A stretch of 64,000 bases of DNA from Erysipelotrichaceae bacterium (GCA_017432885.1 JAFRIE010000013.1:17956-81955), one strand, 5' to 3'; shown: positions 3,730-30,599, numbered from the stretch's first letter. Notes: generated by a model from the letters alone, not told the origin. Numbers and translations are program-made.

Positions 3730-3743
3730 GTACGAATACCTTT

Positions 3744-14603: not shown

Positions 14604-15434
14604 TTACATCAGCCTTTTATAAATATCCAGCATACTTCTGATCTGGTACTGCAGAAGCCAGGAAGCGTTGTTGTATTCCGGCGTCTGCTTTAGAACTTTA
14701 AACAGCGGCAGCACATACTGTTCCGTTTCCATGATCGTCCGGTAGATCCTGTCTCTGCTTAAACCCCAGGACATCGTTGTCAGGTTGTTGCAGCGGTCCA
14801 CGCACTTGATCAGGGCGGCTTTCGGATCGGATGCGAGGTCCTTGTAGTAGGCTTTCATGATCGTTTCCCTGTTTTTGTCATCCTTTTCATGCGTCAGCAG
14901 TTTTACCAGCCGTTTTGTTTCTTCTCCGGTCGGAAGATCATCCAGCCTGTATTCCGTATCTTCCACAACATCATGAAGCAGACAGGCGGCAATCAACGCG
15001 TCATCATCAACTTCCATCGCAAAACAGTGACATGCCAGATTAAGGGGATGATAAATATAAGGAATATCCGACTTTTTACGGGTCTGCCCCTCGTGTGCCT
15101 TGATGGCGAAGTCCAGGGCTTTCAAGGTGTCGCGATACCCTTTCGCTCTGGCGGTGTGTTTCACGAAAGTCGCCATGTGTTTCCAGTCAAAGATATTTTT
15201 GTCCGTCGTAAAGACGTAATCCTCTCTGTTCTCTACCAGGGAAGAAACGGAAACTTCAAACAGTTTTGCCAGTTCCAGCAGATTGTACATATCCGGAAGC
15301 GCCTTGTCATTCTCCCAGAGCGATACCGCCTGATAGGAAACATTCAGTTTATCCGCAACCTGTGCCTGCGTCATATCGGCATCCTTTCTGGCCTTAGCGA
15401 TCCTTTTTCCAATTGAATTCAATGTTTCGTTCAT
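14604..15434 (-). CDS. XRE-family HTH fused to a RelA/SpoT-type HD (ppGpp-hydrolase-like) domain
   Basis: N-terminal HTH (MTQAQVADKLNVSYQAVSLWENDK). The C-terminal HD domain has YIYHPLNLA, LLHDVVEDT and IKCVDRCNNLTTM, which parallels the SpoT motif KLADRLHNMRT. Confidence 0.75.
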   Translation of the reverse strand: MNETLNSIGKRIAKARKDADMTQAQVADKLNVSYQAVSLWENDKALPDMYNLLELAKLFEVSVSSLVENREDYVFTTDKNIFDWKHMATFVKHTARAKGYRDTLKALDFAIKAHEGQTRKKSDIPYIYHPLNLACHCFAMEVDDDALIAACLLHDVVEDTEYRLDDLPTGEETKRLVKLLTHEKDDKNRETIMKAYYKDLASDPKAALIKCVDRCNNLTTMSWGLSRDRIYRTIMETEQYVLPLFKVLKQTPEYNNASWLLQYQIRSMLDIYKRLM

Positions 15435-15513
15435 CGTCTTCCCTCCCTACATTTCCAGTATAGATTTTTATCCCTTATCCGGTAATGGAATAGCACTATA
15501 GTTACCAATAGAA

Positions 15514-15534
15514 AACTCAAGTAATACTTGAGTT
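15514..15534 (-). other. Stem-loop immediately downstream of a perfect TATAAT (15543-15548)
   Basis: Minus strand AACUCAAG-UAUUA-CUUGAGUU followed by UUCUAUU. Could be a 5'-terminal hairpin or an attenuator of the XRE-HD mRNA. Confidence 0.4.
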
Positions 15535-15586
15535 CCCTTTTTATTATACGAAATATAGGCAAAATATGCAAATGAATGTGTGTACG

Positions 15587-15608
15587 AAAAAACCCAGGAT
15601 ATCCTGAG
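15587..15608 (-). terminator. Terminator-like hairpin in the ASCH / XRE-HD intergenic region
   Basis: Minus strand CUCAGG-AUAU-CCUGGG followed by U6. Confidence 0.5.
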
Positions 15609-15678
15609 TTCTGCTGATCGTATTTACTCTTCTACGATATGAAGTATTTCTTTGAAAGAATCAATGCCGTAGGTGGTG

Positions 15679-15702
15679 TTAAAAAAGCGGTATTACCGCT
15701 TT
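15679..15702 (-). terminator. Intrinsic terminator after the ASCH gene
   Basis: Minus strand AAGCGG-UAAUA-CCGCUU followed by UUUU. Confidence 0.5.
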
Positions 15703-15732
15703 AAAATACTTTCTATTTCTATTTATCCAGTC

Positions 15733-16158
15733 CTATTTCTCATATACGACTTCAAATTCTTCACATACCAGCTTCATCTTCTCATCGAAAGTCATATTTA
15801 CCGATTCAAGCTCATCCGTAAAGAATTCCCGATGGACCTCGCGCCAGTATATCAGAGACCTGTCTCCTTCACCTTCCTTGAAAGCGTGTTCTGTCGATAC
15901 CTTGTCAAAAGATTCAATATAGACCTTTGTCGTCCGGATGATACATACCGCTTCCTGCCTTGCATTCAGGATAACACTGTAATCCCCTTCTTTCGGAATC
16001 TCTTCCCCTTCCTGTTCATACAGAACAAGAGCCGAACAGGTTGCCGTCTTGATTCCTTTTCTTGTCAGTTCCGCCAGCTTATCCGGAGCACCGCCGAAAG
16101 CCCATGCTTCATAGGATCCCTGTAAACCCGACTTCTGCCACAATTCTTCAGCCGTCAT
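15733..16158 (-). CDS. ASCH domain-containing protein
   Basis: Start trimmed to MTAEELWQKSG. Pattern AWAFGG...KGIKTATCS...EGEGDRSLIYWREVHREFF is typical of ASCH proteins. Confidence 0.8.
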   Translation of the reverse strand: MTAEELWQKSGLQGSYEAWAFGGAPDKLAELTRKGIKTATCSALVLYEQEGEEIPKEGDYSVILNARQEAVCIIRTTKVYIESFDKVSTEHAFKEGEGDRSLIYWREVHREFFTDELESVNMTFDEKMKLVCEEFEVVYEK

Positions 16159-16172
16159 ATTCTTTCCCTTCT

Positions 16173-17243
16173 TTACCACATCTCTTCCAGATTCCCCTGG
16201 TCCTGGTAGTAGTCTTCCATCAGAACCACAAAGCTCCACTTGGACCGCTTTAAAAACTCTTCATGCGAATAAGCCGTCACATGCAGATCCCCTGTCCAGT
16301 AGGATTCACCGGTATAGATCTTTTCCTCATCCATTCCGATAACCATTCCGATATGTCCGATCAGACCGACAAAGTCTCCCGGTTTTACCTCATCGATATC
16401 AAGATAACGCAGATAGACCTTTTCACCCAGATCACTCAGATCGTGCGTGCCGGCTCTAGGACCCGATCCCAGATCGCCACAGTCGAATCCTGCGTTGTAC
16501 AATACCTAGCTGATAAAACCGGAACAGTCAAATCCGTTACTGGAATACCTGCCCCTGCCGTATTCATAGATCTTGCATCCCCAGATCCCCGGACCCGTTC
16601 CGGATCTGCCGATTTCTTCTTTCTTCTCTTCTGAAAGATAAAGACCCTTGTGATAATATCTTCCCTCTCCATCAACTCCATAGGAATTACTTAATCTGCC
16701 GTTCTCAAAGAAATAATTCAGTTTATAAGGAAACTGCAGCAGAAGGAACCGCGCAGCAGCCACGACTCCCGCTCTCGTCCGATGACCGGCCTGTTTCACT
16801 TCATATTCCAGCACACTATCCAGAAACTCGTTCTCTTCTCTCGTATAATGTTCACAAGGCAGGAATTCTTTCTCCGCCAGAACAGGGATCGTATACAGAT
16901 CCGAAACATGCACCAGATAGCCACTGCATTCTCCCTGTATCCTGACTGTTCCTCTTTTTACTCCTTTGATCGTATTCCCTTCAATGGAAACGATCTCTGT
17001 GTCCTGAGAGATATAGCGTCCTTCCGGAAGGACGCGTTCCTCACCGAAAGCCAGATAGATCTCTTCCTCAAAATGCAGTCTGCAGGCTGCAGGTACATCA
17101 ACGGCAATCGTCTCTTCCAGTCTTAATGTTTCTGGCAGCGGCTCAACAGAAAGTTCTTTTTTTGCATAAAGATACAATCCTGAGAGAAATGAAAAAAGAC
17201 AAAACATGAACAGGGAGATCTTTATGTCGTAACGTTCCGTCAT
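16173..17243 (-). pseudogene. NlpC/P60 (C40) cell-wall hydrolase interrupted by one in-frame TAG
   Basis: ORFs 16506-17276 and 16173-16502 are in the same frame. The read-through sequence is ...NGFDCSGFIS*VLYNAGF...GDFVGLIGHIGMVIG. The catalytic Cys lies before the stop and the catalytic His after it. The stop sits where the family normally has Trp (TGG to TAG). Confidence 0.7.
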
Positions 17244-17295
17244 ACCGGTATTATATGATAACCGAATCAAAAACAAAAGAAATATAAAAACAGGT

Positions 17296-17802
17296 CTATA
17301 CCTGTTTCATGATCTCCTTTCCCGTTTCATATTTATCCTGTTCAGGAATCGTAAAGATGATCCTGATCTCGTGATCCGGATGCTTCCTGCACCAGTCCTT
17401 ACAGGCTCTCAGAGCCGTTTTCCAGGCTTTTTTCAAAGGATAACCGTAGATACCTGCCGAAATCAAAGGAAAGGCGATCGAAGAAATAGAATGCTCTAAA
17501 GCCAGATCCAGACTGCTGATGTAACAGCTGTAAAGAAGTGTTTCCTCGTCGTGGTTTCCATCTTCATAGATGGGTCCTACTGCATGAATGATGTAGGGAC
17601 AAAGCGCAAAGCCCGGCGTGATCACCGCATTTCCCGTCTCGCATCCGCCGATGTCGTCACAGGCTTTCTGCAGTCTTGCAGCACCTGCGGCTCTGAAGAT
17701 GGCGCCGCATACTCCACCTCCCTGTAAAAGACGGGAATTGGCAGCATTGACAACCGCTTGCGCTTCCGTGGCGGTAATACCTGTTTTTCTGATCTCTATC
17801 AT
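17296..17802 (-). CDS. Macro domain protein (O-acetyl-ADP-ribose deacetylase / YmdB-like)
   Basis: VNAANSRLLQGGGVCGAIFRAAG and IAFPLISAGIYGYP motifs. Confidence 0.85.
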   Translation of the reverse strand: MIEIRKTGITATEAQAVVNAANSRLLQGGGVCGAIFRAAGAARLQKACDDIGGCETGNAVITPGFALCPYIIHAVGPIYEDGNHDEETLLYSCYISSLDLALEHSISSIAFPLISAGIYGYPLKKAWKTALRACKDWCRKHPDHEIRIIFTIPEQDKYETGKEIMKQV

Positions 17803-17830
17803 TCCAATATCCTTTCCTTCTTCTATTCAA

Positions 17831-18148
17831 TTATTTTATAAAAACATTCTGTATCAGCAGCATGTATGCAATAGTTCCTGACAGAATAGACAAAGCCGTT
17901 GAATGCTTCCATTTATATGTAACAACGACGATGACAACAGCGATCAGTTCCGGCAGAAATCCGCTGAATGTATTAAAACGGACATCTTTCAGACAGTACA
18001 CCACCAGCATTGCCATGGCGCAGTACGGCAGAACGTTTCCCAGATACAGGATCGCTTCCGGAGTCTTTTTCTGAAACAGCAAAAAGGGCATGAAACGGAT
18101 CATCATCGTACATAGAGCCATGACTGTAATCAGGATCCAGCTATGCAT
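17831..18148 (-). CDS. azlD: Branched-chain amino acid transport protein AzlD
   Basis: 105-aa protein with 3-4 TM helices, overlapping the upstream AzlC gene by 8 nt. Confidence 0.7.
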   Translation of the reverse strand: MHSWILITVMALCTMMIRFMPFLLFQKKTPEAILYLGNVLPYCAMAMLVVYCLKDVRFNTFSGFLPELIAVVIVVVTYKWKHSTALSILSGTIAYMLLIQNVFIK

Positions 18149-19102: not shown

Positions 19103-19156
19103 GAAAACCCCGGCAACGGGGTTTTCAACATAGAAAAGGATCCTTTCGGATCCTTT
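19103..19156 (-). terminator. Two tandem terminator hairpins after rtcB
   Basis: AAAGGAUCC-GAAA-GGAUCCUUU followed by UCU (overlaps the stop codon), then GAAAACCCCG-UUGC-CGGGGUUUUC. Confidence 0.55.
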
Positions 19157-20360
19157 ATTCATCAGCCTTGAAATTGTAGATCGGTTTCACCGTTTGAATG
19201 ATCTGTGCAGTCGGAGTGATATTCTCGACAATATCTTTCATATCCTTATAGGCCATCGGGCTTTCATCCAGCGTATTACGGTTTACCGTCGTAGAGTAGA
19301 TGCCCTCCATCTGCCTTTCAAACTCTTCTACCGACAAGGAACGGAAGGCTTCGTTCCTTGACATGATCCTTCCGGCACCGTGCGGTGCGGAACAGTTCCA
19401 TTCCGGATTTCCTTTTCCGATACAGATCAGAGATCCGTCTCTCATGTTGATTGGGATCAGGAGTTTCTCCCCTTTCTGTGCGGATACGGAGCCTTTTCTC
19501 AAGATCATATTTTCGGTATCGATGTAGTTGTGTACGGTCGTAAACTGGTCGGTAACAGTCAATCCCATTCCCTCAACGATGATCTGCATCATCGTTTTAC
19601 GGTTGATATCGGCAAATTCCTGCATGATCTTCATGTCGTGGATGTAGTCCTTGAACAGGCTGCCGCTTACATAGGCCATCTCCTTTGGAATGTCCGTCTT
19701 TGCCTCTTTCTTGATATCCTCCAGCATCGCTGAAATTTCTCCGCTTCTGCCCTGTGACTTCAGTTCATCGATCCTTTTCTGAATCTCTTCCTTTGTGACT
19801 CCGTTGATCTGCTGCCAGGCCAGACGCTGATAGATCTCGGCCACTTCCTTTCCCAGATGTCTGGAACCGGAATGGATGACGATGTAGAGAGTTCCTTTCT
19901 CATCTTTATCCACCTCGATGAAATGGTTGCCTCCGCCCAGAGAACCGATGGCTTTCAGTTCCTTTTCAAGGTGTTCCAATCTGCTGATGCATCTTAGATT
20001 AAAGACACGCACTTGGTCGGCATTGACGTGCTTCTTTTTGCGCACATTTATGCCCGAAGGGATCTGTTCATGGATCAGACGATCCAGTTTCTCAAGATCG
20101 ATCTCCTTCTCTTTGATCATGACCGTTTCCATCCCGCAGCCGATATCAACACCGACCATATTCGGTGTAACCGCGCCATGCAAAGTCATGGTCGTTCCGA
20201 TGGTACATCCCGCTCCCGCATGGACGTCCGGCATGATACGGATCCTGGAATCCTTGTATATCTCCATGTCACACAAGGCCTGCAGCTGCTGTAGCGCTGT
20301 TTCTTCTACGTTTGAAGTGTAAACGATCGCTTCGTTGTATTTTCCCTGTATCTTGTACAT
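19155..20360 (-). CDS. rtcB: RtcB family RNA 3'-phosphate/5'-OH ligase
   Basis: MPDVHAGAGCTIG, GGGNHFIE, IHSGSRHLG and SAPHGAGR (the guanylylated His context). 401 aa. Confidence 0.9.
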   Translation of the reverse strand: MYKIQGKYNEAIVYTSNVEETALQQLQALCDMEIYKDSRIRIMPDVHAGAGCTIGTTMTLHGAVTPNMVGVDIGCGMETVMIKEKEIDLEKLDRLIHEQIPSGINVRKKKHVNADQVRVFNLRCISRLEHLEKELKAIGSLGGGNHFIEVDKDEKGTLYIVIHSGSRHLGKEVAEIYQRLAWQQINGVTKEEIQKRIDELKSQGRSGEISAMLEDIKKEAKTDIPKEMAYVSGSLFKDYIHDMKIMQEFADINRKTMMQIIVEGMGLTVTDQFTTVHNYIDTENMILRKGSVSAQKGEKLLIPINMRDGSLICIGKGNPEWNCSAPHGAGRIMSRNEAFRSLSVEEFERQMEGIYSTTVNRNTLDESPMAYKDMKDIVENITPTAQIIQTVKPIYNFKADE

Positions 20361-20405: not shown

Positions 20406-21854
20406 TTAGACGGTGATTCTTTCGTATCTTTCCGTATTCAGTACGGAAAGCATGTATTCATATGGCGTCATGTTGATTCCTTTGACCAGGGATTCGAATA
20501 CGGCTGTCGACTGACCGGAAGCCAGCTGTACCCCTTTACGGTCAAAGGAAGCGTGATAAGTACTGTGACGCGAATTGACGTTCCAGAAGACCACGCTTGG
20601 CATCTCGTAACCGTTATCCTCGAACTGTTTCTTCATCAGGTCGTAGAACAGCCAGTTGCCGCTGACGCATCTGTCGATTTCCATGTCGGTAATGACGACG
20701 ATGGAAGAAGGCATTTCCTCTTTCGGGGTCCGGTATTTGACTGCCGTATACAGCAGGAGCCGGAATGCGGCTTCAAGGTCCGTGTTCATCGCCCATTGGG
20801 CATTCGCAATGTATCGGATCTTCTCGAAAAGACTGTCGCCCTTGATGGTGACCAGTTCCGGCCTTGCGGAGAAGGTCATGAAGGTATTGGCAAAAGGACC
20901 TTTGTTTCTTTCGGCAAAATACATGGCCAGACCGACCGAAGTCGCCATCGGTCTGCCGGACATTGAACCGGAAACATCGGCCATGACCAGAAAGCTGTTT
21001 TCGCCTTCGATGTAATTCGGTAAGGCCTTCCACTGTTCCTCAAGGACCTTGTCCACACCTTCCGACTGATAAAGATATTTTTCAACGATATCGTAAGGAT
21101 AAAGGACGGAAGAATTTATTTTCTCTTCGCCTCTTTCAACCTTGCTTACGAACTCGTCGAAACGTTCTTCATCATGACGCCGGAAAGCTTTGCGGTAGTT
21201 GTTCATGGCTTTGGAAGGAACTTCCGGATAGATAATATCTTCCCAGTTCTTTGCAGACATATCGACTTCAACTACATTCAGATACTTACGCAATACCGCA
21301 AGGGTCTTCCGGTATTCCCGCTCGGACATGCCGAAGCTTTTCGCCAGATATTTGCCTTTTCTGACCGTCTCCCTGTTAGAAGTATTGACGGAAGGAAGCC
21401 ATTTCGCCAGTAAAGATACAGGCTCCATTTTCTTCATACCGGCCAGGTCTTCCTTAAGCTGTTTCTTCAGCAGCGGAACGATGACATCCGCTGCATCGTC
21501 CAGCAGATAGACCAGATCGTCCCATCTTCCGTAATCGGCAACGTATTCCAGATTCTTTCTGAAGATATCGGGATAGTTTTCAGCCAGATACTTCAGCATC
21601 AGTCTGCCGGTACGTCTTTCCCCCAGACCGCCTCTGACATCTCTGGTATAGAAAGCCAGTTTTGTCGCAACAAGCTTATCTTTCACCATGGCTTTTGAGA
21701 ACAGGGCGATGATTTCCTCGTCTTCTCTCTCGCGCATTGCGCCGGAGACGGCAAAAAGATCAACCAGGGCGTCTGACGTGCTGTTTAAAGCCAGAGCGTC
21801 GTTTTCGGTTAGTGTGTAGTTCTGTTCCTTTCTGATGTTATCGAATAAAGTCAT
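20406..21854 (-). CDS. DUF2828-type protein: helical N-terminal half plus C-terminal vWA/MIDAS domain (Ro60-like architecture)
   Basis: Start trimmed to MTLFDNIRKEQ, with AAGGAGG 7 nt upstream. MIDAS motif VMADVSGSMSG and a later VVITDME. N-half has YTRDVRGGLGERR and YGRWDDLVYLL motifs. The family name is from memory and unverified. Confidence 0.65.
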   Translation of the reverse strand: MTLFDNIRKEQNYTLTENDALALNSTSDALVDLFAVSGAMREREDEEIIALFSKAMVKDKLVATKLAFYTRDVRGGLGERRTGRLMLKYLAENYPDIFRKNLEYVADYGRWDDLVYLLDDAADVIVPLLKKQLKEDLAGMKKMEPVSLLAKWLPSVNTSNRETVRKGKYLAKSFGMSEREYRKTLAVLRKYLNVVEVDMSAKNWEDIIYPEVPSKAMNNYRKAFRRHDEERFDEFVSKVERGEEKINSSVLYPYDIVEKYLYQSEGVDKVLEEQWKALPNYIEGENSFLVMADVSGSMSGRPMATSVGLAMYFAERNKGPFANTFMTFSARPELVTIKGDSLFEKIRYIANAQWAMNTDLEAAFRLLLYTAVKYRTPKEEMPSSIVVITDMEIDRCVSGNWLFYDLMKKQFEDNGYEMPSVVFWNVNSRHSTYHASFDRKGVQLASGQSTAVFESLVKGINMTPYEYMLSVLNTERYERITV

Positions 21855-22019
21855 GGTTTTTACCTCCTTATGATTCTTAGACACGGCACTACGGGTGTTG
21901 CGTTTTTCCGGTTTTCTAGATGGTGCAAACAGTTTGTTGCAAGTGCCGTTATACAAGATGCCATATTCGTTCATTTATGAGATGAATGTCACTAAGATTG
22001 CTGCAGGCATCTTTGTTTC

Positions 22020-22122
22020 AAGACGTTGTTATGATCGCGGGATTCGAACCCGCCTGTCCCTGACTGCAAGTCAGGTGCTTACCGCTTAGTCAGATCTCTC
22101 AAAAGATTGCTGTTAACGTCTT
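22020..22122 (-). ncRNA. tRNA-like module (Y-RNA/YrlA-like candidate) in the leader of the vWA-rtcB operon
   Basis: Perfect T arm GCGGG-UUCGAAU-CCCGC (22037-22053). Anticodon-like arm CCUGA-CUUGCAG-UCAGG (22059-22075). D loop AAGCGGUAAG. Only a 4-bp acceptor (GAUC/GAUC) and no CCA. Clamped by an 8-bp helix AAGACGUU/AACGUCUU. Transcript ends are unknown. Confidence 0.5.
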
Positions 22123-22341
22123 TCATTCCAGACACCATAGTTCCTTTACAAGAGGTTTTGCTGTCGGTGTCTGATGTCCCTTGGGACAATTTCATCATAA
22201 CAGGAGTCATATTTATAATAAATTGTCAGTTTCTCAAATTACTTGACCACCTGTTTTATCATTTTTTATGGTTTTTTTACATAGATTTCTTTATTTCTTG
22301 ACCACCTTTTGTGTACCATAAAGGTATATGAAGGCAGAAAC

Positions 22342-23361
22342 ATGGAAGAAAAGATCAAAATATACATACCGGAAAGCGTCAACAGTATCCTATTAAAGGA
22401 CATGGAACTCTTTGAATTCTTCAAAAAGGACGGTTCCTTGAATAAAAACGAGTTCTACAACACTCTGATCGTCAACTACTATGAACAGTACGAAGAAAAC
22501 CAGAGTGCGATCTTTTCTCATATCATCGGCAGCATTTCCGAAAAGTCATCCCTTACGGAAACGGAGGCCAAGGACATCGCCGCCGACATCCTGCAGTACG
22601 TGGATGTCCGAACCTATCAGCTGGACAGACAGAAATACGACGTGGCGATTGCCATGAAACCGACCCGGAAATCCTCCGACGATATCGAATACATCCAGAA
22701 CTGTCTGCTAGGCAATTCCACGCTATCCAATTATTTCCGTAACATGTTCGCATCCTATTCCCTGCTGCCTCAGGACAAACGGGAGACGATCATTTTTAAG
22801 CAGAATTTCGACCTGATCAGGGAAGCTATTGAAGAAGACAGGAAGGTTTATTTCACTACTGTCAAAAACACTGCACCGCACATTATGTCTCCGTATACGA
22901 TCGCCAGTTCCAGAGAGGAGCTTTTCAACTATCTGATCGGTAACTACAAAGACCATCCCTACAGTTTCCGCATTTCCCGGATCCGGCAGGTCAAGATCCT
23001 GAATGAATCCAGGGATATGCCGGAAGGACTCGTCAGAATTTTCGAATGGATGGAAAAGTTCGGTCCGCAGTTCTCCTACGACATCAAGAAACCGAGAACG
23101 CCGATCATCGTCAGACTGACGGAAAACGGCAGACGGCAGTTCCGTTCCATGTATCTGCATCGGCCTTCTCCTTTCAAGATCGAGGAGGATCTCTACTATT
23201 TTGACTGTTCCCGTTCCCAGGCTTTCCAGTACTTCTCCAGACTCGGAAGCAACGCGACCGTACTGAAACCTGAAGACCTGGCCGATGATCTGTACAGGTT
23301 CTATTCCATGGCGGAAAGAAAATACCGGAAACTTGTCAGAGAAGAACCCGGAAATGAATGA
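22342..23361 (+). CDS. WYL-like domain protein with a WCX-like C-terminus and an unrecognised N-terminal region
   Basis: Start trimmed to MEEKIKIYIPE. WYL-type core: KVYFTTVKNTAPHIMSPYTIASSREELFNYLIGNYKDHPYSFRISRIRQVKIL. C-terminal ...FSRLGSNATVLKPEDLADDL resembles the WYL C-terminal extension. No canonical wHTH seen. Confidence 0.5.
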   Translation: MEEKIKIYIPESVNSILLKDMELFEFFKKDGSLNKNEFYNTLIVNYYEQYEENQSAIFSHIIGSISEKSSLTETEAKDIAADILQYVDVRTYQLDRQKYDVAIAMKPTRKSSDDIEYIQNCLLGNSTLSNYFRNMFASYSLLPQDKRETIIFKQNFDLIREAIEEDRKVYFTTVKNTAPHIMSPYTIASSREELFNYLIGNYKDHPYSFRISRIRQVKILNESRDMPEGLVRIFEWMEKFGPQFSYDIKKPRTPIIVRLTENGRRQFRSMYLHRPSPFKIEEDLYYFDCSRSQAFQYFSRLGSNATVLKPEDLADDLYRFYSMAERKYRKLVREEPGNE

Positions 23362-23364
23362 CGG

Positions 23365-23435
23365 ATTCTTTGCTGAGACTTGAACACAGATCTGCAGATT
23401 CAAAGTCTGCTGTCCTTCCTTTAGACGACAAAGAA
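23365..23435 (-). tRNA. tRNA-Gln (anticodon UUG), atypical
   Basis: Acceptor UUCUUUG/CAAAGAA (U1:A72). D arm GUC-UAAAGGAAG-GAC. Anticodon arm GCAGA-CUUUGAA-UCUGC. T arm CUGUG-UUCAAGU-CUCAG with one U*U mismatch. No encoded CCA. The 3' end is 3 nt from the stop of the convergent gene. Confidence 0.6.
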
Positions 23436-23438
23436 ACG

Positions 23439-23522
23439 TGGTGCACAGGGAAGGAATTTGCACCTTCACAGAATTAACGGGAGTTTTACAGACTCTTGAG
23501 CTCACTCGTGCTCAGCCTGTCC
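23439..23522 (-). tRNA. tRNA-Tyr (anticodon GUA), long-variable-arm type with a non-canonical elbow
   Basis: Acceptor GGACAGG/CCUGUGC (G2*G71 mismatch), A73, CCA encoded. D arm GAGC-ACGAGUGA-GCUC (no GG). Anticodon loop CUGUAAA. 12-nt variable region. T stem GAAGG/CCUUC with an 8-nt loop UGCAAAUU. Confidence 0.6.
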
Positions 23523-23523
23523 A

Positions 23524-23600
23524 TGGTCAGTGTGACAGGATTCGAACCTGTGGTCTCATGGTCCCAGGCCATGCGCTTTGCCAAGCTAAGCTACACACTG
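23524..23600 (-). tRNA. tRNA-Pro (anticodon UGG) with C at position 33
   Basis: Acceptor CAGUGUG/CACACUG. D arm GCUU-AGCUUGGCA-AAGC. Anticodon arm CAUGG-CCUGGGA-CCAUG. T arm ACAGG-UUCGAAU-CCUGU. A73 and CCA encoded. Confidence 0.8.
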
Positions 23601-23605
23601 ATGAT

Positions 23606-23680
23606 TGGCGGTCTATACGGGAATTGAACCCGTATCCGGTGATAGACAGTCACCTATCTTAGCCGTTAGACGAATAGACC
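23606..23680 (-). tRNA. tRNA-Asp (anticodon GUC)
   Basis: Acceptor GGUCUAU/AUAGACC. D arm GUCU-AACGGCUA-AGAU. Anticodon arm GGUGA-CUGUCUA-UCACC. T arm ACGGG-UUCAAUU-CCCGU. G73 and CCA encoded. Confidence 0.85.
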
Positions 23681-23682
23681 AC

Positions 23683-23757
23683 TGGTTCCAGATCAGGGAG
23701 TTGAACCCTGTTCCTGCGGCTTATGAGACCGCGACAGATACCGACCTTCCATCTGGT
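23683..23757 (-). tRNA. tRNA with CAU anticodon (Met, initiator or lysidine-Ile; undecided)
   Basis: Acceptor ACCAGAU/AUCUGGA with an A1*A72 mismatch. Weak D stem. Anticodon arm GCGGU-CUCAUAA-GCCGC. T arm CAGGG-UUCAACU-CCCUG. A73 and CCA encoded. Confidence 0.7.
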
Positions 23758-23760
23758 ATA

Positions 23761-23835
23761 TGGTAATGCCACCGGGACTTGAACCCGGATTGCAGGATTG
23801 AAAATCCTGTGACCTGACCTTTCGTCGATGGCATC
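23761..23835 (-). tRNA. tRNA-Glu (anticodon UUC)
   Basis: Acceptor GAUGCCA/UGGCAUU (G1:U72). D arm GAC-GAAAGGUCAG-GUC. Anticodon arm CAGGA-UUUUCAA-UCCUG. T arm CCGGG-UUCAAGU-CCCGG. A73 and CCA encoded. Confidence 0.85.
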
Positions 23836-23836
23836 A

Positions 23837-23911
23837 TGGTAGAAGCTGATGGACTTGAACCAGTCAACTGACGATTATAAGTCGCCTGTTTTTCCTTTAA
23901 ACTAAGCTTCT
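23837..23911 (-). tRNA. tRNA-Ile (anticodon UAU), atypical T stem
   Basis: Acceptor AGAAGCU/AGCUUCU. D arm GUUU-AAAGGAA-AAAC. Anticodon arm GGCGA-CUUAUAA-UCGUC. T loop UUCAAGU with stem GA(C)UGG/CCAUC (bulged C). A73 and CCA encoded. Confidence 0.7.
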
Positions 23912-23913
23912 GC

Positions 23914-23988
23914 TGGGGTATTGTAACGGTACTGCCCCGTTTCTTTCGCGGTCACAACGCGACGTACTGCTTCTATACGAACAACACC
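23914..23988 (-). tRNA. tRNA-His (anticodon GUG) with a non-canonical T loop
   Basis: Encoded G-1 paired to C73. Acceptor GUGUUGU/ACAAUAC. CCA encoded. Anticodon arm UCGCG-UUGUGAC-CGCGA. T stem AACGG/CCGUU is perfect but the loop is GGCAGUA. D loop AGAAGCA lacks GG. Confidence 0.7.
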
Positions 23989-23991
23989 ATA

Positions 23992-24065
23992 TGGCTTCGG
24001 GTGACCGACTCGAACGGTCATCCTATGAGTCAGAGTCATAGATCCTGCCATTAGAAGAACCCGAA
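23992..24065 (-). tRNA. tRNA-Gln (anticodon CUG)
   Basis: Acceptor UUCGGGU/ACCCGAA (U1:A72). Anticodon arm UAUGA-CUCUGAC-UCAUA. T arm GACCG-UUCGAGU-CGGUC. G73 and CCA encoded. D stem about 3 bp. Confidence 0.8.
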
Positions 24066-24070
24066 TCCCG

Positions 24071-24098
24071 GAGAGCCCTGGGTTCTCATTTTTCTTTT
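24071..24098 (+). terminator. Plus-strand intrinsic-terminator-like signal just past the tRNA array
   Basis: GAGAGCC-CUG-GGUUCUC followed by AUUUUUCUUUU. The minus-strand version is not followed by U's. It overlaps the 3' end of the XRE CDS. Confidence 0.5.
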
Positions 24099-24292
24099 AC
24101 AATGATCTCATCGATCGTCATCTGAAACAGTTCTGACAGCACCGCCAGATTATCCACAGTTGGCAGTGCTTCACCCCTCTGCCACTTGAAGATGGCCTGA
24201 GGCGTGTTGAAGCCCATCGCTTCCTGAATCGCTTTAATCGAAAGACCTTTTTCTTTTCTTAAGCGGGAGATATTGTTTCCCGTTTTGATCAT
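24086..24292 (-). CDS. Small XRE-family HTH protein
   Basis: MIKTGNNISRLRKEKGLSIKAIQEAMGFNTPQAIFKWQRGEALPTVDNLAVLSELF is a classic Cro/CI-type HTH. The start is ambiguous (24292 or 24325). Confidence 0.75.
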   Translation of the reverse strand: MIKTGNNISRLRKEKGLSIKAIQEAMGFNTPQAIFKWQRGEALPTVDNLAVLSELFQMTIDEIIVKEK

Positions 24293-24333
24293 GTTGATCC
24301 TGACTGCTACAAACACAGCAACCATCTCCTTTC

Positions 24334-24377
24334 AAACAAAAACCGCTTGTTATTGTTTTCTGCAACAGCCAAGCGGT
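24334..24377 (-). terminator. Intrinsic terminator after the channel/SepF-like operon
   Basis: Minus strand ACCGCUUG, a 20-nt loop, CAAGCGGU, followed by UUUUUGUUU. Confidence 0.55.
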
Positions 24378-24605
24378 CATTATTCTTCGGAATAATCAGG
24401 TTCGTTTATATCAAAAACGCAGACACACTGAAGCAGAAACGTCATCAAAAACGCCATCATCATATATAGGGCTGATAGCCTGCTGTTCTTCGTGCTGTGA
24501 ATAGAATCGCATGTTTCTGTTTAAGTTTTGTTTCAGCATGTGTTTCCTCCTTTACGGGAATACTATAACATAATTTTCAGAAAAGGGAAGTATACCTGTG
24601 GTATA

Positions 24606-26902: not shown

Positions 26903-27547
26903 TTACTTTTTCCTTTTCTCGTAGTCTTCCGCGATCTGTACACTCCAGTCCTCTGCGATACAGCCGCAGGTTCTGTGCATTTTAACGGCATCCGATAGTA
27001 CTTCATAGTTCTTCTTTGTTCCCTTGGAATCGCTGTGAAACCTTACCGCCCTGTCTTCTTCGATCCCGTAGCGTTTCGCCGTTTCTACCGCATCGATGTT
27101 GGCTGCCAGGAAGAGGAATTCCCAGCCTTTCTTTTTCTGCCGAGAGACCATTTTCTTGACATCGTCGGATGAATACCGGGTCGAAGCATTCTCCATGCCG
27201 TCGGTTATGATCACAAAGATCGTTTTCTCCGGGACATCCTCTTTCCGGATGTATTTGTGGACATTCCGGATGTGATGGATGGCGTCTCCCATGGCGTCGA
27301 TCAAAGCCGTCGTTCCGGAAGGGAAGTAGTCCTCTCTGTCCATCTTTCTGATCTCTTTCAAAGAGACCCGATCATAGACTACTTTACTGGTCTGGTTGAA
27401 CAGGACAGTCGAAACCAGACATTCTCCGTCCACTTTTTTCTGTTTTTCCACGAAAGAATTGAATCCGCCGATCGTGTCTTCCTCCAGACCGCTCATCGAT
27501 CCGCTTCGATCTAAAATAAATACCAGTTCTGTTAAATTCTTATTCAT
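26903..27547 (-). CDS. Small cytoplasmic vWA domain protein
   Basis: MIDAS LVFILDRSGSMSG plus FVIITDGMEN. 214 aa with no signal peptide. Confidence 0.8.
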   Translation of the reverse strand: MNKNLTELVFILDRSGSMSGLEEDTIGGFNSFVEKQKKVDGECLVSTVLFNQTSKVVYDRVSLKEIRKMDREDYFPSGTTALIDAMGDAIHHIRNVHKYIRKEDVPEKTIFVIITDGMENASTRYSSDDVKKMVSRQKKKGWEFLFLAANIDAVETAKRYGIEEDRAVRFHSDSKGTKKNYEVLSDAVKMHRTCGCIAEDWSVQIAEDYEKRKK

Positions 27548-27633
27548 TATCTACCTCCTTAAAATGTGACCGTATTTCTACAGTCACATCATAAGATTTA
27601 TCGGAAAATGAATGGTCGTTTGGGAAACGACAT

Positions 27634-28668
27634 TTAACAGCCCAGTGTTTTCTGATCCTGTTCGAACAGGATCTCGTTGACCTGATAAATATTGTAGATC
27701 CTGTGTTCAATGCAGTAACGGATAATCAGATCGAATTTGATCGCTTTCGAAAGAACATAACCTGCTCTCTCCAGAAGGATATTCGTATCTTCCATGTTCA
27801 GTCTCATTCCGATAGCCAGAGCTACGGCTGTTTCTTTCTTTGGCCGGTAGTTCTTCGTATTCTTGATGTGGTTGAAGTGTTTCCGGTCGATGTTGGCCTT
27901 TTTGTATACCTCGGGATCCGGCAGTCCCCTCTCGTCGATCATACGGATCAGACATTCCGAAAAGGATTCATCCGGTTCAAATTTTTCTTCTTCATAAACG
28001 TATTCTACCGATGTTGTATATTTTGGAACAACGGCATCTTCTTCGTAAAGTCTTCCCGCCTGCTCCGGCATCATTCCATCGACAAAAAACGTATCCTGAT
28101 ATGTTTTCCTTGCTTTCTTTGCCGTGTGATGGGCCGATGAACGAAGCTGTCCGTCCAGATAGTCTTGAATATCGAGATATAACCTGTTGGCAGTATCAAA
28201 GGATTCCTTGTCGTAAACCAGCAAAGAAACCTTCATTTCATTGTCATTCAGGAAATCCGTAATCGTGTCGGTAGCGATTCTTAACGCCTGACCTTTCGGG
28301 AAAGAAAAAGATCCTGAAGCAATTAAGGGAAATACGATCGACTCCAGTTTCTGTTCTTTGGCGATATTCAGACATCTCCGGTAACAGGAGGTCAGCAGCT
28401 CCACTTCCTGATGTTTTCCGTCTGTGTAGTTTGGACCGCAAGTATGGATGATGTAACGGTATCCTTTCAGGTCGAAGGAATCGCTTAAAACGGCCTCTCC
28501 TGCCGAAATATGACCAATGCCGAAACAGAATTCATCAAGCTTTTCTCCCGACAGTTCATGGATGATCCTGTCGACCCCTCCGGAGCCGGATAAAAAGACA
28601 TCCGTCGGACAGACGATCGCATCGGCACTGATGTTTCGGATATCGTTTCTGCTGATTTCCAGTGGCAT
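27634..28668 (-). CDS. Macro domain protein with a C-terminal HTH-like domain
   Basis: N-terminal macro fold (ADAIVCPTDVFLSGSGGVDRIIH and VFPLIASGSFSFP). The C-terminal about 110 aa (FSECLIRMIDERGLPDPEVYKKANIDRKHFNHIK...LLERAGYVLS) resembles an XRE-like HTH module. Confidence 0.7.
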   Translation of the reverse strand: MPLEISRNDIRNISADAIVCPTDVFLSGSGGVDRIIHELSGEKLDEFCFGIGHISAGEAVLSDSFDLKGYRYIIHTCGPNYTDGKHQEVELLTSCYRRCLNIAKEQKLESIVFPLIASGSFSFPKGQALRIATDTITDFLNDNEMKVSLLVYDKESFDTANRLYLDIQDYLDGQLRSSAHHTAKKARKTYQDTFFVDGMMPEQAGRLYEEDAVVPKYTTSVEYVYEEEKFEPDESFSECLIRMIDERGLPDPEVYKKANIDRKHFNHIKNTKNYRPKKETAVALAIGMRLNMEDTNILLERAGYVLSKAIKFDLIIRYCIEHRIYNIYQVNEILFEQDQKTLGC

Positions 28669-28847
28669 AATTTTCTCTTTTCTTTCTATTCAAATCATAC
28701 ATCATTCAATATGCCGTATGCTATAACGAATGACGGATCCGAAGTCATCGATAAATTTTTTCCTTGCCGGTATCGGTCTCTTTTCCTTAAAGATCATTAG
28801 ACATCAGAAGAAAAAGGTAATATAATACCGAGAATGGAGGTAATACT

Positions 28848-29237
28848 ATGACTAGACTGATTTACATGTTTATTCAACTGATCTCAAAACTTCATTCGAA
28901 GCTTCTTTCCATAAATTACAATCACGGCTACGATCTCTCCGATAAACAGCTGCATTTCCTGATTATCGGATTCTTCGGGTTCTGTATGCTGATGGTAATA
29001 CAGCCGGTCATCAAGTGGCTGTCAAAGCATCATGCCGAACTGATGATCACTTTCATTTATGTATTCTCCATCGTTATTGTAGTCAGTTTTGCGATCGAAC
29101 TGGGACAGGCTTATTCCGGAACAGGTGATATGGACTTTTACGACATCGCTTCCGGCATCCTGGGTTTCTTTGTCTTTTTCGGAATCTACCTGATCGGTTA
29201 TCTGCTATACGGGATCTATAAAAAGAAGACTGTCTGA
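28848..29237 (+). CDS. Small membrane protein, possibly VanZ-like
   Basis: Four predicted TM segments. The ELGQAYSGTGDMDFYDIASGILG pattern is reminiscent of the VanZ motif. Weak assignment. Confidence 0.4.
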   Translation: MTRLIYMFIQLISKLHSKLLSINYNHGYDLSDKQLHFLIIGFFGFCMLMVIQPVIKWLSKHHAELMITFIYVFSIVIVVSFAIELGQAYSGTGDMDFYDIASGILGFFVFFGIYLIGYLLYGIYKKKTV

Positions 29238-29238
29238 T

Positions 29239-29535
29239 CTATTCCGCGATCTGGGCGATCAGCAGTTCCTGATTCATGAATCGGATGATGCATAAAGCAT
29301 CATCTTTTATTTGGTCGTAGACTCTTCCTGCCGAACAGGTTCCTCTCATAACCGAGTAGACCGAGTTGGCCACATAGCCGCATTTCATCTGGTCTTTCAG
29401 TACGACAATAGCTTCATCGTCGTAAAGATTGTTTCTGTCTTTCTTGAGTGTCAATAGATCTCCCGGTTTAAGAAAAGCTGCACTGTTAAAATCATCCAGA
29501 TGGCTGATCGTAATGAATATGTTTCTTTCTTTCAT
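29239..29535 (-). CDS. Stand-alone HIRAN-like domain protein
   Basis: Start trimmed to MKERNIF, with GAGG upstream. LKPGDLLTLKKDRNNLYDDEAIVVLKDQMKCGYVANS fits the HIRAN pattern (G-D-x-L-x-L-x-x-x-x-N-x-x-D-x-x-A-I-x-V...G-Y-V). Confidence 0.55.
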   Translation of the reverse strand: MKERNIFITISHLDDFNSAAFLKPGDLLTLKKDRNNLYDDEAIVVLKDQMKCGYVANSVYSVMRGTCSAGRVYDQIKDDALCIIRFMNQELLIAQIAE

Positions 29536-29630
29536 GGCTAAAACCTCATCTGTAACCGGCCTTATTCTAAAAAGGGGAAGATGCAAAAAAAACGACAGGG
29601 ATGCTAAAATGAAGAAAAGAGGAAACGATC

Positions 29631-30599
29631 ATGGCAGAAAAGAAGCACAGCGTTCTGGCTTTACTGGAGATTTTGCGAAAGTATTCCGACGAAGATCATA
29701 TTTTAAGTCTAAAAGAAATACAGAGGCATCTGGAGAACGAATACGGTACGGTTCTGGATCGAAGGACAATCTATACCAATCTGGATATTCTGGAAGATTT
29801 CGGCTACGAGATCAGTGATTTCGAGGATAACGGAAAGGGATACTTTCTGGTTCAAAGGGAATTCGACAAGGGAGAAATCCTGCTTCTGGCGAATGCCGTT
29901 CATGCATCACATTTTATTTCAGCGAATCAGTCCGCTTCCCTGATCAACAGGCTTCTGGAAACGCAAAGCAGATATGTGAAGGCCGATTTCAAGGACAAGG
30001 TCTTTATGCCCAATCCGGTAAAAACGATGAAGCGGCAGCTTCTTTACAACCTGGAGACCGTTTCTGACGCAATCAGAGACAGCAGACAGCTGCAGTTCAA
30101 GTATCTGCGCTACGACAGCAGAAAGAAACCGGTACCCCGCAGAGAAGAACCTTACATCGTCGAACCGCGTTATATCGTCTATGCCGATGCCAGACCCTAC
30201 ATGATCGTCACCAGCGAAAATCATCCGGGATTCATTCATTACCGGATCGACAGGATGGCAGATGCCAGGATCCTCACTGAAAAATCCAGGCCGCTGCCTA
30301 AAAGATCCGATCCCTACGACTATGCCAGAAACAAACTGTTTATGTATTCCGGGGATACGGAAACGGTCTCCTTCCGATGCAGGAATGAAGTCATGGATCA
30401 TATGATCGATATCTTCGGTCCGGAACTGACTGTTCTACCGGAAGACGGGGAACACTTCCGGATCCGGGTAAAAGTTCCTGCCCAGGGAGCCCTGTATCTG
30501 GCACAGCAGTTCATGGACAGTATTACGATCATGGAACCGGAAGATCTGAAAGAAGAGTTTAAGGCGAAACTGAGGGAAGTCAGAAAGAGATATGCATAA
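29631..30599 (+). CDS. WYL-domain transcriptional regulator (wHTH-WYL-WCX)
   Basis: N-terminal wHTH (LSLKEIQRHLENEYGTVLDRRTIYTNLDIL). WYL core LQFKYLRYD...PYIVEPRYIVYADARPYMIVT...IHYRIDRMADARIL. C-terminal ITIMEPEDLKEEF. Confidence 0.8.
   Translation: MAEKKHSVLALLEILRKYSDEDHILSLKEIQRHLENEYGTVLDRRTIYTNLDILEDFGYEISDFEDNGKGYFLVQREFDKGEILLLANAVHASHFISANQSASLINRLLETQSRYVKADFKDKVFMPNPVKTMKRQLLYNLETVSDAIRDSRQLQFKYLRYDSRKKPVPRREEPYIVEPRYIVYADARPYMIVTSENHPGFIHYRIDRMADARILTEKSRPLPKRSDPYDYARNKLFMYSGDTETVSFRCRNEVMDHMIDIFGPELTVLPEDGEHFRIRVKVPAQGALYLAQQFMDSITIMEPEDLKEEFKAKLREVRKRYA

Follow-up and report, generated by a model that had tools for sequence, protein, structure and literature searches.

The DNA analysed here is a 64,000-nucleotide stretch (the window; positions count from its start) of a metagenome-assembled genome from a rumen/gut Erysipelotrichaceae bacterium, which carries nine closely packed tRNA genes on the minus strand at 23363-24065. 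These genes probably form an accessory, or "spare", tRNA operon that includes a tRNA-Tyr of a phage-array lineage, is preceded by a leader predicted to sense ribosome stalling, and lies beside an RNA-repair unit; we favour this reading with rather better than even confidence, on the basis of comparative sequence analysis. The array lies directly 3′ of a gene for a small XRE-family regulator, and the same arrangement occurs at 12 of 12 loci compared (the window and relatives, referred to below by locus number). Across these loci the tRNA cloverleaves are conserved, the content and position of the array vary, the operon architecture is maintained, a leader helix (a–a′) covaries, and the codons of each leader match the tRNAs encoded downstream of it.

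An earlier note on this DNA, made from the sequence alone, had described nine minus-strand tRNA genes, and all nine were recovered. With default settings, ARAGORN called Gln(CUG), Ile(UAU), Glu(UUC), a tRNA with anticodon CAU, Asp(GUC), Pro(UGG), and Gln(UUG) on that strand. Of the remaining two, which comparison with homologues confirmed, Tyr(GUA) was reported only at the 85% threshold and His(GUG) not even at 80%. The packing is as tight as the note had stated (spacers of 3, 2, 1, 3, 2, 5, 1, and 3 nt), and CCA is indeed encoded in eight genes, the exception being Gln(UUG), which ends in UCC-G. The Rfam tRNA gathering score was reached by five of the nine (52–64 bits), with the other four below 29 bits. 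The note had also counted structural anomalies in five genes; the anomalies are real, but they affect more genes than that. Its description of the acceptor stems as AU-rich is in part a description of ordinary features, because the U1-A72 pair of both Gln genes is normal in bacterial tRNA-Gln.

Departures from the canonical elbow and anticodon loop (G18G19, T54-Ψ55-C56, U33, and a purine at 37) are confined to His, Tyr, Pro, and Asp. The D loop (AGAAGCA) and T loop (GGCAGUA) of tRNA-His are without GG and UUC, tRNA-Tyr has an 8-nt T loop and a G2·G71 mismatch, and positions 33 and 37 are odd in some anticodon loops of the array: from sequences read by eye, the C33 of Pro is shared with L020, and the U37 of Asp with L006 but not L010. 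With regard to the nuclease resistance that the note had raised as a possibility, these changes at positions 33 and 37 and in the elbows have parallels in proposals made for phage tRNAs (PMC10264068, PMC11555353). The CAU tRNA, which would be a Met tRNA or, if modified with lysidine, an Ile2 tRNA, has an A1·A72 mismatch and a weak D arm with a 2-bp stem. Identity features are kept, including G-1:C73 in His, U1-A72 and G73 in Gln(CUG), A73 and the long variable arm in Tyr, and C1-G72 and A73 in Pro.

Comparison with orthologues indicates that the array members are structured RNAs under selection rather than chance cloverleaves, as two-sided changes keep many stem pairs and few pairs are broken. 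Such changes preserve seven pairs in Glu(UUC) and six in Pro(UGG), with none broken, relative to L137 (a metagenome contig with an L010-type array), and five pairs in Gln(CUG), with one broken, relative to L009. Compensated acceptor pairs are likewise present in the CAU tRNA orthologues of L006, L010, and L137. For tRNA-His, a fuzzy search with the arms of the window gene found no homologue among the first 144 loci; an orthologue called by ARAGORN was subsequently identified in L152, and it has two compensatory acceptor pairs (U-A to C-G and G-C to A-U) and a T loop that is again non-canonical. The deviant loops of both Tyr and His are seen again in orthologues. Anticodons are less constant, since the L006 orthologue of Ile(UAU) has GAU and the L020 orthologue of Pro(UGG) (8068-8144) has UCA, which would read UGA and which ARAGORN labels "SeC". 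The window Gln(UUG) differs from its orthologues, which have G73-CCA.

The evidence that the array is supernumerary comes from its relatives. The 12 XRE-array loci each have a different content, ranging from 3 to 16 tRNA genes. In L006, whose DUF2828 protein is 89% identical to that of the window, Gln(CUG), His, and Gln(UUG) have been cut to deletion stubs and Pro is absent; in L020 the Asp gene is truncated; L009 has four genes, and L010 has twelve, including a His-like gene that was read by eye and is not called by ARAGORN. In relatives L013 and L015-L019 the WYL, DUF2828, and RtcB neighbours are retained, yet no array accompanies them, and ten more loci found through the XRE protein carry 3–16 tRNAs in many unrelated genomic contexts. 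This patchy presence and variable content among relatives is the pattern of supernumerary tRNA genes of the L-array type. Species without Gln, His, and Pro genes at this locus must encode them elsewhere, and therefore the window organism should do so too, so that its array tRNAs would be redundant within its genome. The description of the array as a spare set rather than ordinary housekeeping genes is accordingly supported by content, presence, and position, as well as by the stubs, the switched anticodons, and the lower scores. The note had also pointed to an overlap with the targets of anticodon nucleases; this proved unspecific, because the pooled array repertoire spans 16 amino acids. Genes for Ala, Gly, Lys, and Val tRNAs were absent from the arrays inspected.

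Upstream of the array, all 12 loci share the order GTATAC repeat, –10 box, strong ribosome-binding site (RBS), open reading frame (ORF), terminator, and XRE RBS. The operator-like repeat TATACCACAGGTATAC comprises two palindromic GTATAC half-sites and is conserved in the window, L006, L009, L010, and L145-L154; it occurs once in the window, where 0.03 chance matches are expected. It is followed by an extended –10 box, TGTTATAGT, and by a leader ORF, MLKQNLNRNMRFYSQHEEQQAISPIYDDGVFDDVSASVCLRF, with its RBS, AAAGGAGG. An ORF of 38–47 codons occupies this place in 12 of 12 loci (11 by a scan for RBS plus ORF; the L153 leader, with a GTG start, was read by eye), and in all 12 it precedes an intrinsic terminator in the 5′ leader of the genes that would be regulated. 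Only one promoter-like site is conserved across loci; the terminator separates it from the XRE gene, and no conserved promoter follows. As the note had held, there is also no room for a promoter between XRE and the tRNAs: the XRE stop codon is at 24086-24088, and the 20-nt spacer that follows is occupied by a hairpin and has no promoter-like site. The best site in a promoter scan (23874-23901) was dismissed as chance, as it lies inside tRNA-Ile and consists of its D and anticodon loops. To judge from sequence, the leader ORF and terminator, with the helix described next, have the layout of a ribosome-dependent attenuator.

The proposed antiterminator is formed by segment a, UUUCUGCUUCAG, which encodes Ser-Ala-Ser near the end of the leader ORF, and by the complementary segment a′, CUGUUGCAGAAA, in the unusually long loop of the terminator. 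Segment a is conserved across loci even at synonymous positions; the L147 segment a has a synonymous substitution, GCT to GCA, for which a′ compensates, and L009, L145, and L150 show further two-sided changes. In a hand-built alignment of 11 loci, 92.8% of the a–a′ and terminator cells were paired, compared with no more than 52% in slid controls. Taken alone, a–a′ was 88% paired and 4 of its 12 pairs showed two-sided changes; pairing in the terminator stem was 100%, and two of its pairs showed such changes. Because the order in the RNA is a, T5′, a′, T3′, the a–a′ and terminator helices cross, a topology from which we infer that they are mutually exclusive. RNAfold calculations made before T3′ exists placed a–a′ in the minimum-energy fold in four of five species, and the full-length fold was the terminator. 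RNAalifold, applied to four leaders, recovered the terminator and not a–a′, because it cannot represent crossing helices.

The leader also appears to mirror its own array. In the window, almost all residues of the leader centre, YSQHEEQQAISPIYDD, are served by downstream tRNAs. Over 12 loci, the summed match of leaders to their own arrays was 6.16, compared with 5.54 ± 0.18 for permuted pairings (P = 2e-4), and with one representative per related group the permutation P was 0.0003–0.004. For 15 of 16 amino acids, the mean leader count was higher when the array has a matching tRNA. Leader cores are only 15–45% identical, except for the window and L006 (73%) and L006 and L151 (52%). As an example, the leader core of L152, whose array alone has a tRNA-Asn, contains three Asn codons, about twice the mean of the other leaders. 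The sensor codons are thus related to the regulated tRNAs statistically, and not one-to-one.

A further element of the argument is tRNA-Tyr. Its T arm, GAAGG-UGCAAAUU-CCUUC, is identical in the L006 and L010 arrays and differs by two loop bases in L020. The 20-nt pattern of this arm matched 54 contigs (8 viral contigs in IMG/VR and 46 metagenome contigs), almost always within large tRNA arrays and in gaps left uncalled by ARAGORN. The arrays came from freshwater, marine, soil, and gut samples. Thirty-eight distinct full-length homologues share a cloverleaf with the D loop AYGAGUGA and an invariant T arm; all have the anticodon loop CUGUAAA (C33 in L010) and A73, and all but two have CCA. In an alignment of 24 of the 38, 92.6% of cells were paired and 15 pairs showed two-sided changes, compared with no more than 57% paired in a slid-partner control. 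This tRNA type was further located by BLAST in isolate phages of Caulobacter, Brevundimonas, Rhizobium, and Sphingobium (17 records; for example JX100810.1 68365-68450), without being annotated in any of the records; the contigs of the lineage are L091-L144. A widespread phage-array tRNA-Tyr with an odd elbow is therefore mostly overlooked by ARAGORN and is unannotated in 17 of 17 isolate phage records. Several metagenomic arrays with this Tyr (L118, L132, L140, and L144) also carry a tRNA with anticodon CUA, which would read UAG and is labelled "Pyl" by ARAGORN; these tRNAs, like the UCA tRNA of L020, may be suppressor tRNAs.

The observations can be combined into a mechanism in which the operator and promoter, the 42-codon leader ORF, the terminator, XRE, and nine tRNAs without promoters of their own would constitute one transcription unit. 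During normal translation, the leader ribosome would cover segment a, allowing the terminator to form, and little XRE-tRNA transcript would be made. A stall in the leader centre, where codons for the tRNAs of the array (Tyr, Gln, His, Glu, Ile, Pro, Asp, and Met) are abundant, would let a pair with a′, blocking the terminator stem so that RNA polymerase reads into XRE and the tRNAs; a ribosome that is stalled upstream or absent would likewise favour read-through. The tRNAs would be freed by RNase P and RNase Z and, once aminoacylated, would replenish the depleted species, and XRE would shut the promoter once more. From the leader–terminator architecture, the array is predicted to be silent in unstressed cells and induced by translational stress, which might include tRNA depletion through anticodon nucleases, toxins, or starvation. 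The adjoining WYL-controlled operon, encoding Y-RNA-like RNAs, a Ro60-like DUF2828 protein, and RtcB, would handle damaged RNAs, and together with the array would replace and repair tRNA after depletion or cleavage. The complete scheme, a self-tuning tRNA-supply circuit in which depletion stalls the leader, phage-type altered-loop tRNAs are made, and the Ro60-like/RtcB/WYL unit repairs or clears, is proposed tentatively, at somewhat less than even confidence.

Several points weigh against this interpretation. Gln(UUG) without G73 and CCA, and Tyr with its G2·G71 mismatch, look damaged, and the odd positions 33 and 37 could hamper decoding. The a–a′ alignment is small (nine distinct rows), was assembled by hand, and is biased towards the helix, and a–a′ might coexist with the terminator as a pseudoknot. 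Transcription and translation are reported to be loosely coupled in Bacillus subtilis, which could weaken an attenuator that depends on ribosome timing. The first test of leader against array, with seven loci, was not significant (P = 0.15 at the amino-acid level, 0.07 at the codon level), and the idea was retained only after five loci had been added and relatives pruned; the loci are not fully independent, and the small arrays of L006, L009, and L153, where genes appear to have been lost, match their own leaders poorly. A rival reading is a spare operon controlled by XRE and its operator only, in which the leader ORF and hairpin would be a small gene and its terminator, and a–a′ and the leader composition would be coincidental or otherwise used. 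The conserved operator, unique in the window, the small hand-aligned covariation sample, and the non-significant seven-locus test all fit such control. We consider it improbable, since a terminator separates the conserved promoter-like site from XRE with no conserved promoter after it, the synonymous sites of Ser-Ala-Ser are conserved and covary with a′, a–a′ is the first helix to form in folding, and leader composition matches the array significantly both in the 12-locus set and in the pruned sets.

The tRNAs themselves admit other explanations. That they belong to an ordinary housekeeping cluster, part of the essential set, is very improbable. Most have good cloverleaves and encoded CCA, and tRNA operons in Firmicutes are generally compact (PMC8421152), for which reason compactness by itself is uninformative. 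However, content varies even among close relatives, some copies are stubs, and relatives with WYL, DUF2828, and RtcB can be without the array. Four of the nine miss the Rfam cut-off and the other five score 52–64 bits, compared with 64–76 bits in a housekeeping-type Pro-Gly-Arg-His-Gln cluster (L050, L069). The array is not adjacent to rRNA genes, sits behind a regulator gene and a terminator, and includes a Tyr of the phage-array lineage. The stubs of Gln(CUG), His, and Gln(UUG) in L006, the truncated Asp of L020, the loss of G73 and CCA from the window Gln(UUG), the non-canonical loops, and the low covariance scores would instead suit a relic of a phage-acquired array, drifting towards functionless pseudogenes. 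This is unlikely, given that stems are kept through many two-sided changes with few breaks, that 12 diverged loci retain the whole operon, with its operator, leader, terminator, and XRE gene, and that the leader tracks its own array content, which is not expected for dead genes. A further alternative, likewise unlikely, is that the genes encode tRNA-shaped RNAs with mainly non-translational roles, such as nuclease decoys, ligands or substrates of the Ro60-like protein or RtcB, or damage sensors with fragments that signal to WYL. It would account for the C33 of Pro, the U37 of Asp, the C33 or G33 of Tyr and His orthologues, the altered Tyr and His elbows, the anticodon switches between orthologues (UAU/GAU and UGG/UCA), and the adjoining Y-RNA-like tRNA mimics and Ro60-fold protein; moreover, a sponge role has been proposed for the Anabaena array tRNAs (PMC8421152). 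Even so, synthetase identity elements and encoded CCA are retained, the match of leader codons to array content is best explained by decoding, some XRE-array units have no DUF2828 or RtcB gene anywhere near them, and in vivo 23 of the 26 tRNAs of the Anabaena array carry an amino acid (PMC8421152). The coordinates on which this reading of a spare tRNA operon is based are collected in the table below.

Table. Features of the tRNA operon and of the neighbouring operon, with positions counted from the start of the window
Feature	Position	Strand	Basis and remarks
Operator-like repeat	24590-24605	minus	Candidate XRE site
Extended –10 box	24562-24570	minus	Conserved across loci; putative promoter element
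Leader ORF	24411-24539	minus	42 codons plus stop
Segment a	24428-24439	minus	Ser-Ala-Ser codons; 5′ strand of proposed antiterminator
Intrinsic terminator	24333-24377	minus	T5′ 24370-24377; T3′ and U tract 24333-24349; conserved in 12/12 loci
Segment a′	24357-24368	minus	In terminator loop; complementary to a
XRE-family HTH protein	24086-24316	minus	76 aa; Pfam HTH_3, E 2e-9; longest ORF to 24325; first operon gene
Hairpin over XRE stop codon	24071-24087	minus	In 20-nt spacer; terminator-like on plus strand (T run after)
tRNA array, nine genes	23363-24065	minus	Seven by ARAGORN default; Tyr and His confirmed by homologues
tRNA-Gln(CUG)	23992-24065	minus	ARAGORN; U1-A72, G73, CCA; below Rfam cut-off
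tRNA-His(GUG)	23914-23988	minus	Cloverleaf with G-1:C73; ARAGORN silent even at 80% threshold
tRNA-Ile(UAU)	23837-23911	minus	ARAGORN; bulged T stem
tRNA-Glu(UUC)	23761-23835	minus	ARAGORN; Rfam 58.4 bits
tRNA with anticodon CAU	23683-23757	minus	ARAGORN; below Rfam cut-off
tRNA-Asp(GUC)	23606-23680	minus	ARAGORN; Rfam 55.5 bits; U37
tRNA-Pro(UGG)	23524-23600	minus	ARAGORN; 64.1 bits; C33
tRNA-Tyr(GUA)	23439-23522	minus	ARAGORN at 85% threshold only; long variable arm; 38 homologues
tRNA-Gln(UUG)	23363-23435	minus	ARAGORN; 54.8 bits; U73, no CCA
WYL-domain regulator	22342-23361	plus	Pfam WYL; convergent with array, divergent from Y-RNA/DUF2828/RtcB operon
Divergent promoter region	22194-22305	minus	Direct repeats 22299-22305 and 22244-22250; –10 box 22194-22202
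Four tandem Y-RNA-like hairpins	21880-22175	minus	Each with closing stem, then ACAGCAA
Hairpin module M1	22126-22175	minus	Stem and ACAGCAA
Hairpin module M2	22017-22124	minus	Stem and ACAGCAA
Hairpin module M3	21952-22015	minus	Stem and ACAGCAA
Hairpin module M4	21880-21951	minus	Stem and ACAGCAA
DUF2828/DUF7788 protein	20406-21854	minus	Pfam; Ro60-like predicted fold (helical ring and vWA)
RtcB RNA ligase	19155-20360	minus	Pfam RtcB, E 1e-64; 45% identical to LP-048 RtcB

The XRE family is narrow, comprising 241 proteins. The hairpin over its stop codon has equivalents in L009, L010, L146, L147, L150, L151, and L154, where the sequences differ yet remain complementary. Since this hairpin is terminator-like on the plus strand, transcription from the convergent WYL gene might extend in antisense through the entire array and end there. 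As an observation on a related array, L152 carries a gene for an RRXRR/HNH endonuclease (3473-4231) just after the XRE-tRNA array; it recalls all8564, an HNH endonuclease gene conserved beside cyanobacterial L-arrays and co-regulated with them (PMC8421152, PMC10272220).

The proximity to an RNA ligase reported in the earlier note stands, with RtcB 3 kb from the array and the Ro60-fold protein also nearby; RtcB genes likewise lie near the arrays of L006, L009, L010, and L146, an association of neighbourhood only. The order WYL(-)/DUF2828/RtcB is kept in L006-L020. In the divergent promoter region, two direct repeats of AGGTGGTCAAG about 55 nt apart, together with TATGGTACAC and the extended –10 box TGTTATGAT, are conserved in 13 loci/species, and the repeats are a candidate WYL operator. 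The regulator of this operon carries a WYL domain and is not RtcR, a sigma-54 activator with CARF.

The Y-RNA-like hairpins lie between this promoter region and the DUF2828 gene, and their stems covary across 13 species. Module M2 contains a tRNA-like cloverleaf (22028-22099) that ARAGORN names "tRNA-Ala(UGC)" and that scores 32.8 bits with Rfam; it was rejected as a tenth tRNA on account of its mismatched acceptor, its position inside a Y-like hairpin, and an "anticodon" loop that differs freely between orthologues even as the stem covaries. A search of Rfam over 21500-24600, with E up to 10, found neither YrlA nor another family on the Y-like hairpins, and the sole YrlA match (18 bits) was cross-talk with the Asp and Pro genes. 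Modules of a stem followed by ACAGCAA also adjoin DUF2828 in the phages LP-048 (L089 5653-5918), VRE9_3 (L090 5893-5956), and the mycobacteriophage Moostard (L086 6483-6671), and one Moostard hairpin has the permuted layout, T arm then D arm, of YrlA. The ACAGCAA hairpins are probably the Y-RNA partners of a Ro60-like DUF2828 family. The AlphaFold2 model of the DUF2828 protein (predicted local distance difference test score, pLDDT, 87) gave nine best Foldseek matches in the PDB that were all Ro60 (E 5e-8 to 1.5e-6; template-modelling score 0.5–0.6), including the Ro60 of a Thermus phage. At the sequence level, there was no Pfam TROVE match, and a profile search against PDB sequences did not find Ro60. 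On the strength of the predicted model, DUF2828 proteins may be read as Ro60-like proteins with a partner-RNA class of their own.

In a set of 80 species representatives, two or more tRNA genes are clustered on one strand within 10 kb of DUF2828 at about 15 loci, and at least the L050 and L069 clusters look like housekeeping ones. In Lachnospiraceae, matches to the Rfam tRNA model of 100–126 nt and 38–50 bits were observed directly upstream of DUF2828 (L065 9272-9650, L034 9246-9364, L050 9243-9472, and L069 9667-9787), and these may be tRNA-like Y-RNA domains with large insertions.

The relationship of the locus to mobile elements is mixed. Homologues of DUF2828 are present in 708 phage records, frequently under the name "Ro-like RNA binding protein", and DUF2828 lies in or beside a same-strand tRNA array in four of five phages inspected (Tsamsa, FelixO1, Listeria LP-048, and Enterococcus VRE9_3), the order in LP-048 being tRNA array, DUF2828, XRE, HD hydrolase, and RtcB. 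The earlier note had called the array a mobile-element type; the Tyr lineage, the variable position, and the neighbouring DUF2828 and RtcB genes, which typically accompany phage tRNA arrays, agree with this, but no mobile element was found and there was no array-level match in phage, plasmid, or IMG/VR collections. Integrase or phage genes were found neither nearby nor elsewhere in the window, and the idea that the window is itself a phage or prophage was rejected because the flanks have genes for glycogen synthase, PRPP synthetase, urocanase, and peptidases. When the array was compared by BLASTN with phages and plasmids, there were generic single-tRNA matches at 75–84% identity and no array-level relative, and kinship with phage tRNAs was found for Tyr alone. 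Carriage by a known virus is unsupported because scans of IMG/VR for the XRE protein and the leader motif found nothing.

Compared with known systems, the window array most readily recalls phage tRNA arrays and the trn L-array of Anabaena sp. PCC 7120. The arrays of LP-048, Tsamsa, FelixO1, and VRE9_3 have the same one-strand gene set and order, with array, ACAGCAA hairpins, and DUF2828, to which LP-048 adds XRE and RtcB; the Tyr lineage is common to arrays on IMG/VR viral contigs and to isolate phages of Alphaproteobacteria. Identity to the phage homologues is 45% for RtcB and 34–42% for DUF2828, and the XRE of LP-048 is not detectably homologous to that of the window. Unlike the phage arrays, the window array is chromosomal, without phage genes, and without an array-level DNA match to any phage; nor was a leader attenuator seen in these phages, although no search was aimed at one. 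The window array likewise resembles defence-countering phage tRNAs (PMC10264068, PMC11555353, PMC11464382) in comprising extra, altered-loop tRNAs that would supply nuclease-attacked species, but it is cell-encoded, and any resistance of its tRNAs to nucleases is hypothetical. The Anabaena L-array similarly consists of supernumerary, horizontally spread tRNA genes in one operon, some of them pseudogenes, and is linked to rtcB; it is silent in normal growth, induced by translational stress, and co-regulated with rtcB by TrcR (PMC8421152, PMC10272220). L-arrays reach up to 43 genes, with 26–39 in earlier-reported arrays (PMC8421152). That of Anabaena has 26 genes on a megaplasmid, compared with nine (3–16 in relatives) on a chromosome here, so that the window array falls short of a long array. 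Its direct repeats are bound by a ribbon-helix-helix repressor and its rtcB lies elsewhere, whereas here there are XRE, a leader ORF, and a terminator, and the array adjoins Ro60-like/Y-RNA/RtcB genes under WYL.

The neighbouring operon and the leader have their own counterparts. Antibiotic-sensing leader peptides in Firmicutes are ribosome-mediated attenuators. The trp, his, and pheA leader attenuators (e.g. PMC3082878) share with the proposed mechanism a sensor-codon ORF, an intrinsic terminator, and an alternative helix that uses the end of the ORF. The differences are that tRNA genes, rather than biosynthetic or resistance genes, would be regulated here, that the sensor codons are mixed (up to about ten amino acids) and follow array content, and that only two elements compete, a–a′ and a terminator holding a′ in its loop. 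With the Salmonella rsr-yrlBA-rtcBA operon (PMC4201824, PMC7790460) the neighbouring operon shares a predicted Ro60 fold, small RNAs including a tRNA mimic, RtcB, and a dedicated regulator. However, DUF2828 is not TROVE and resembles Ro60 at the level of predicted fold only, the RNAs have no Rfam YrlA match, the tRNA-like domain is non-permuted, the regulator is WYL rather than RtcR, and here a tRNA operon adjoins the unit.

Accessory tRNA arrays, and their link with RtcB, are already known. In the literature searched we found no leader-peptide attenuator before tRNA genes with sensor codons mirroring the array, no tRNA array fused to a Ro60-like/Y-RNA/RtcB operon under WYL, and no phage-array tRNA-Tyr lineage with an invariant non-canonical elbow. 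If the proposed mechanism is true, this would be the first leader-peptide attenuator regulating tRNA genes, with a leader peptide that appears to gauge the availability of the very tRNAs its operon supplies, and a cellular counterpart of the tRNA-carrying strategy of phages. Accessory arrays are widespread and their switching is known for essentially one case, Anabaena, so the locus may offer a second and different mechanism. It also joins spare tRNAs, Ro60/Y-RNA quality control, and RtcB repair, which are usually studied separately, and the gene set held in common with large phages suggests exchange of a tRNA "replace-and-repair" kit between phages and gut bacteria.

Finally, genes with an RNA- or ADP-ribose-related theme surround the locus at 14604-18148 and 26903-30599. 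The first interval encodes an HTH-HD_4 protein (14604-15434), an ASCH protein (15733-16239), and a Macro-domain protein (17296-17802); the second encodes a small VWA protein (26903-27547), another Macro-domain protein (27634-28668), and a second WYL protein (29631-30599). The Macro, VWA, XRE, array, WYL, and DUF2828 elements are syntenic also in L006 and L148.

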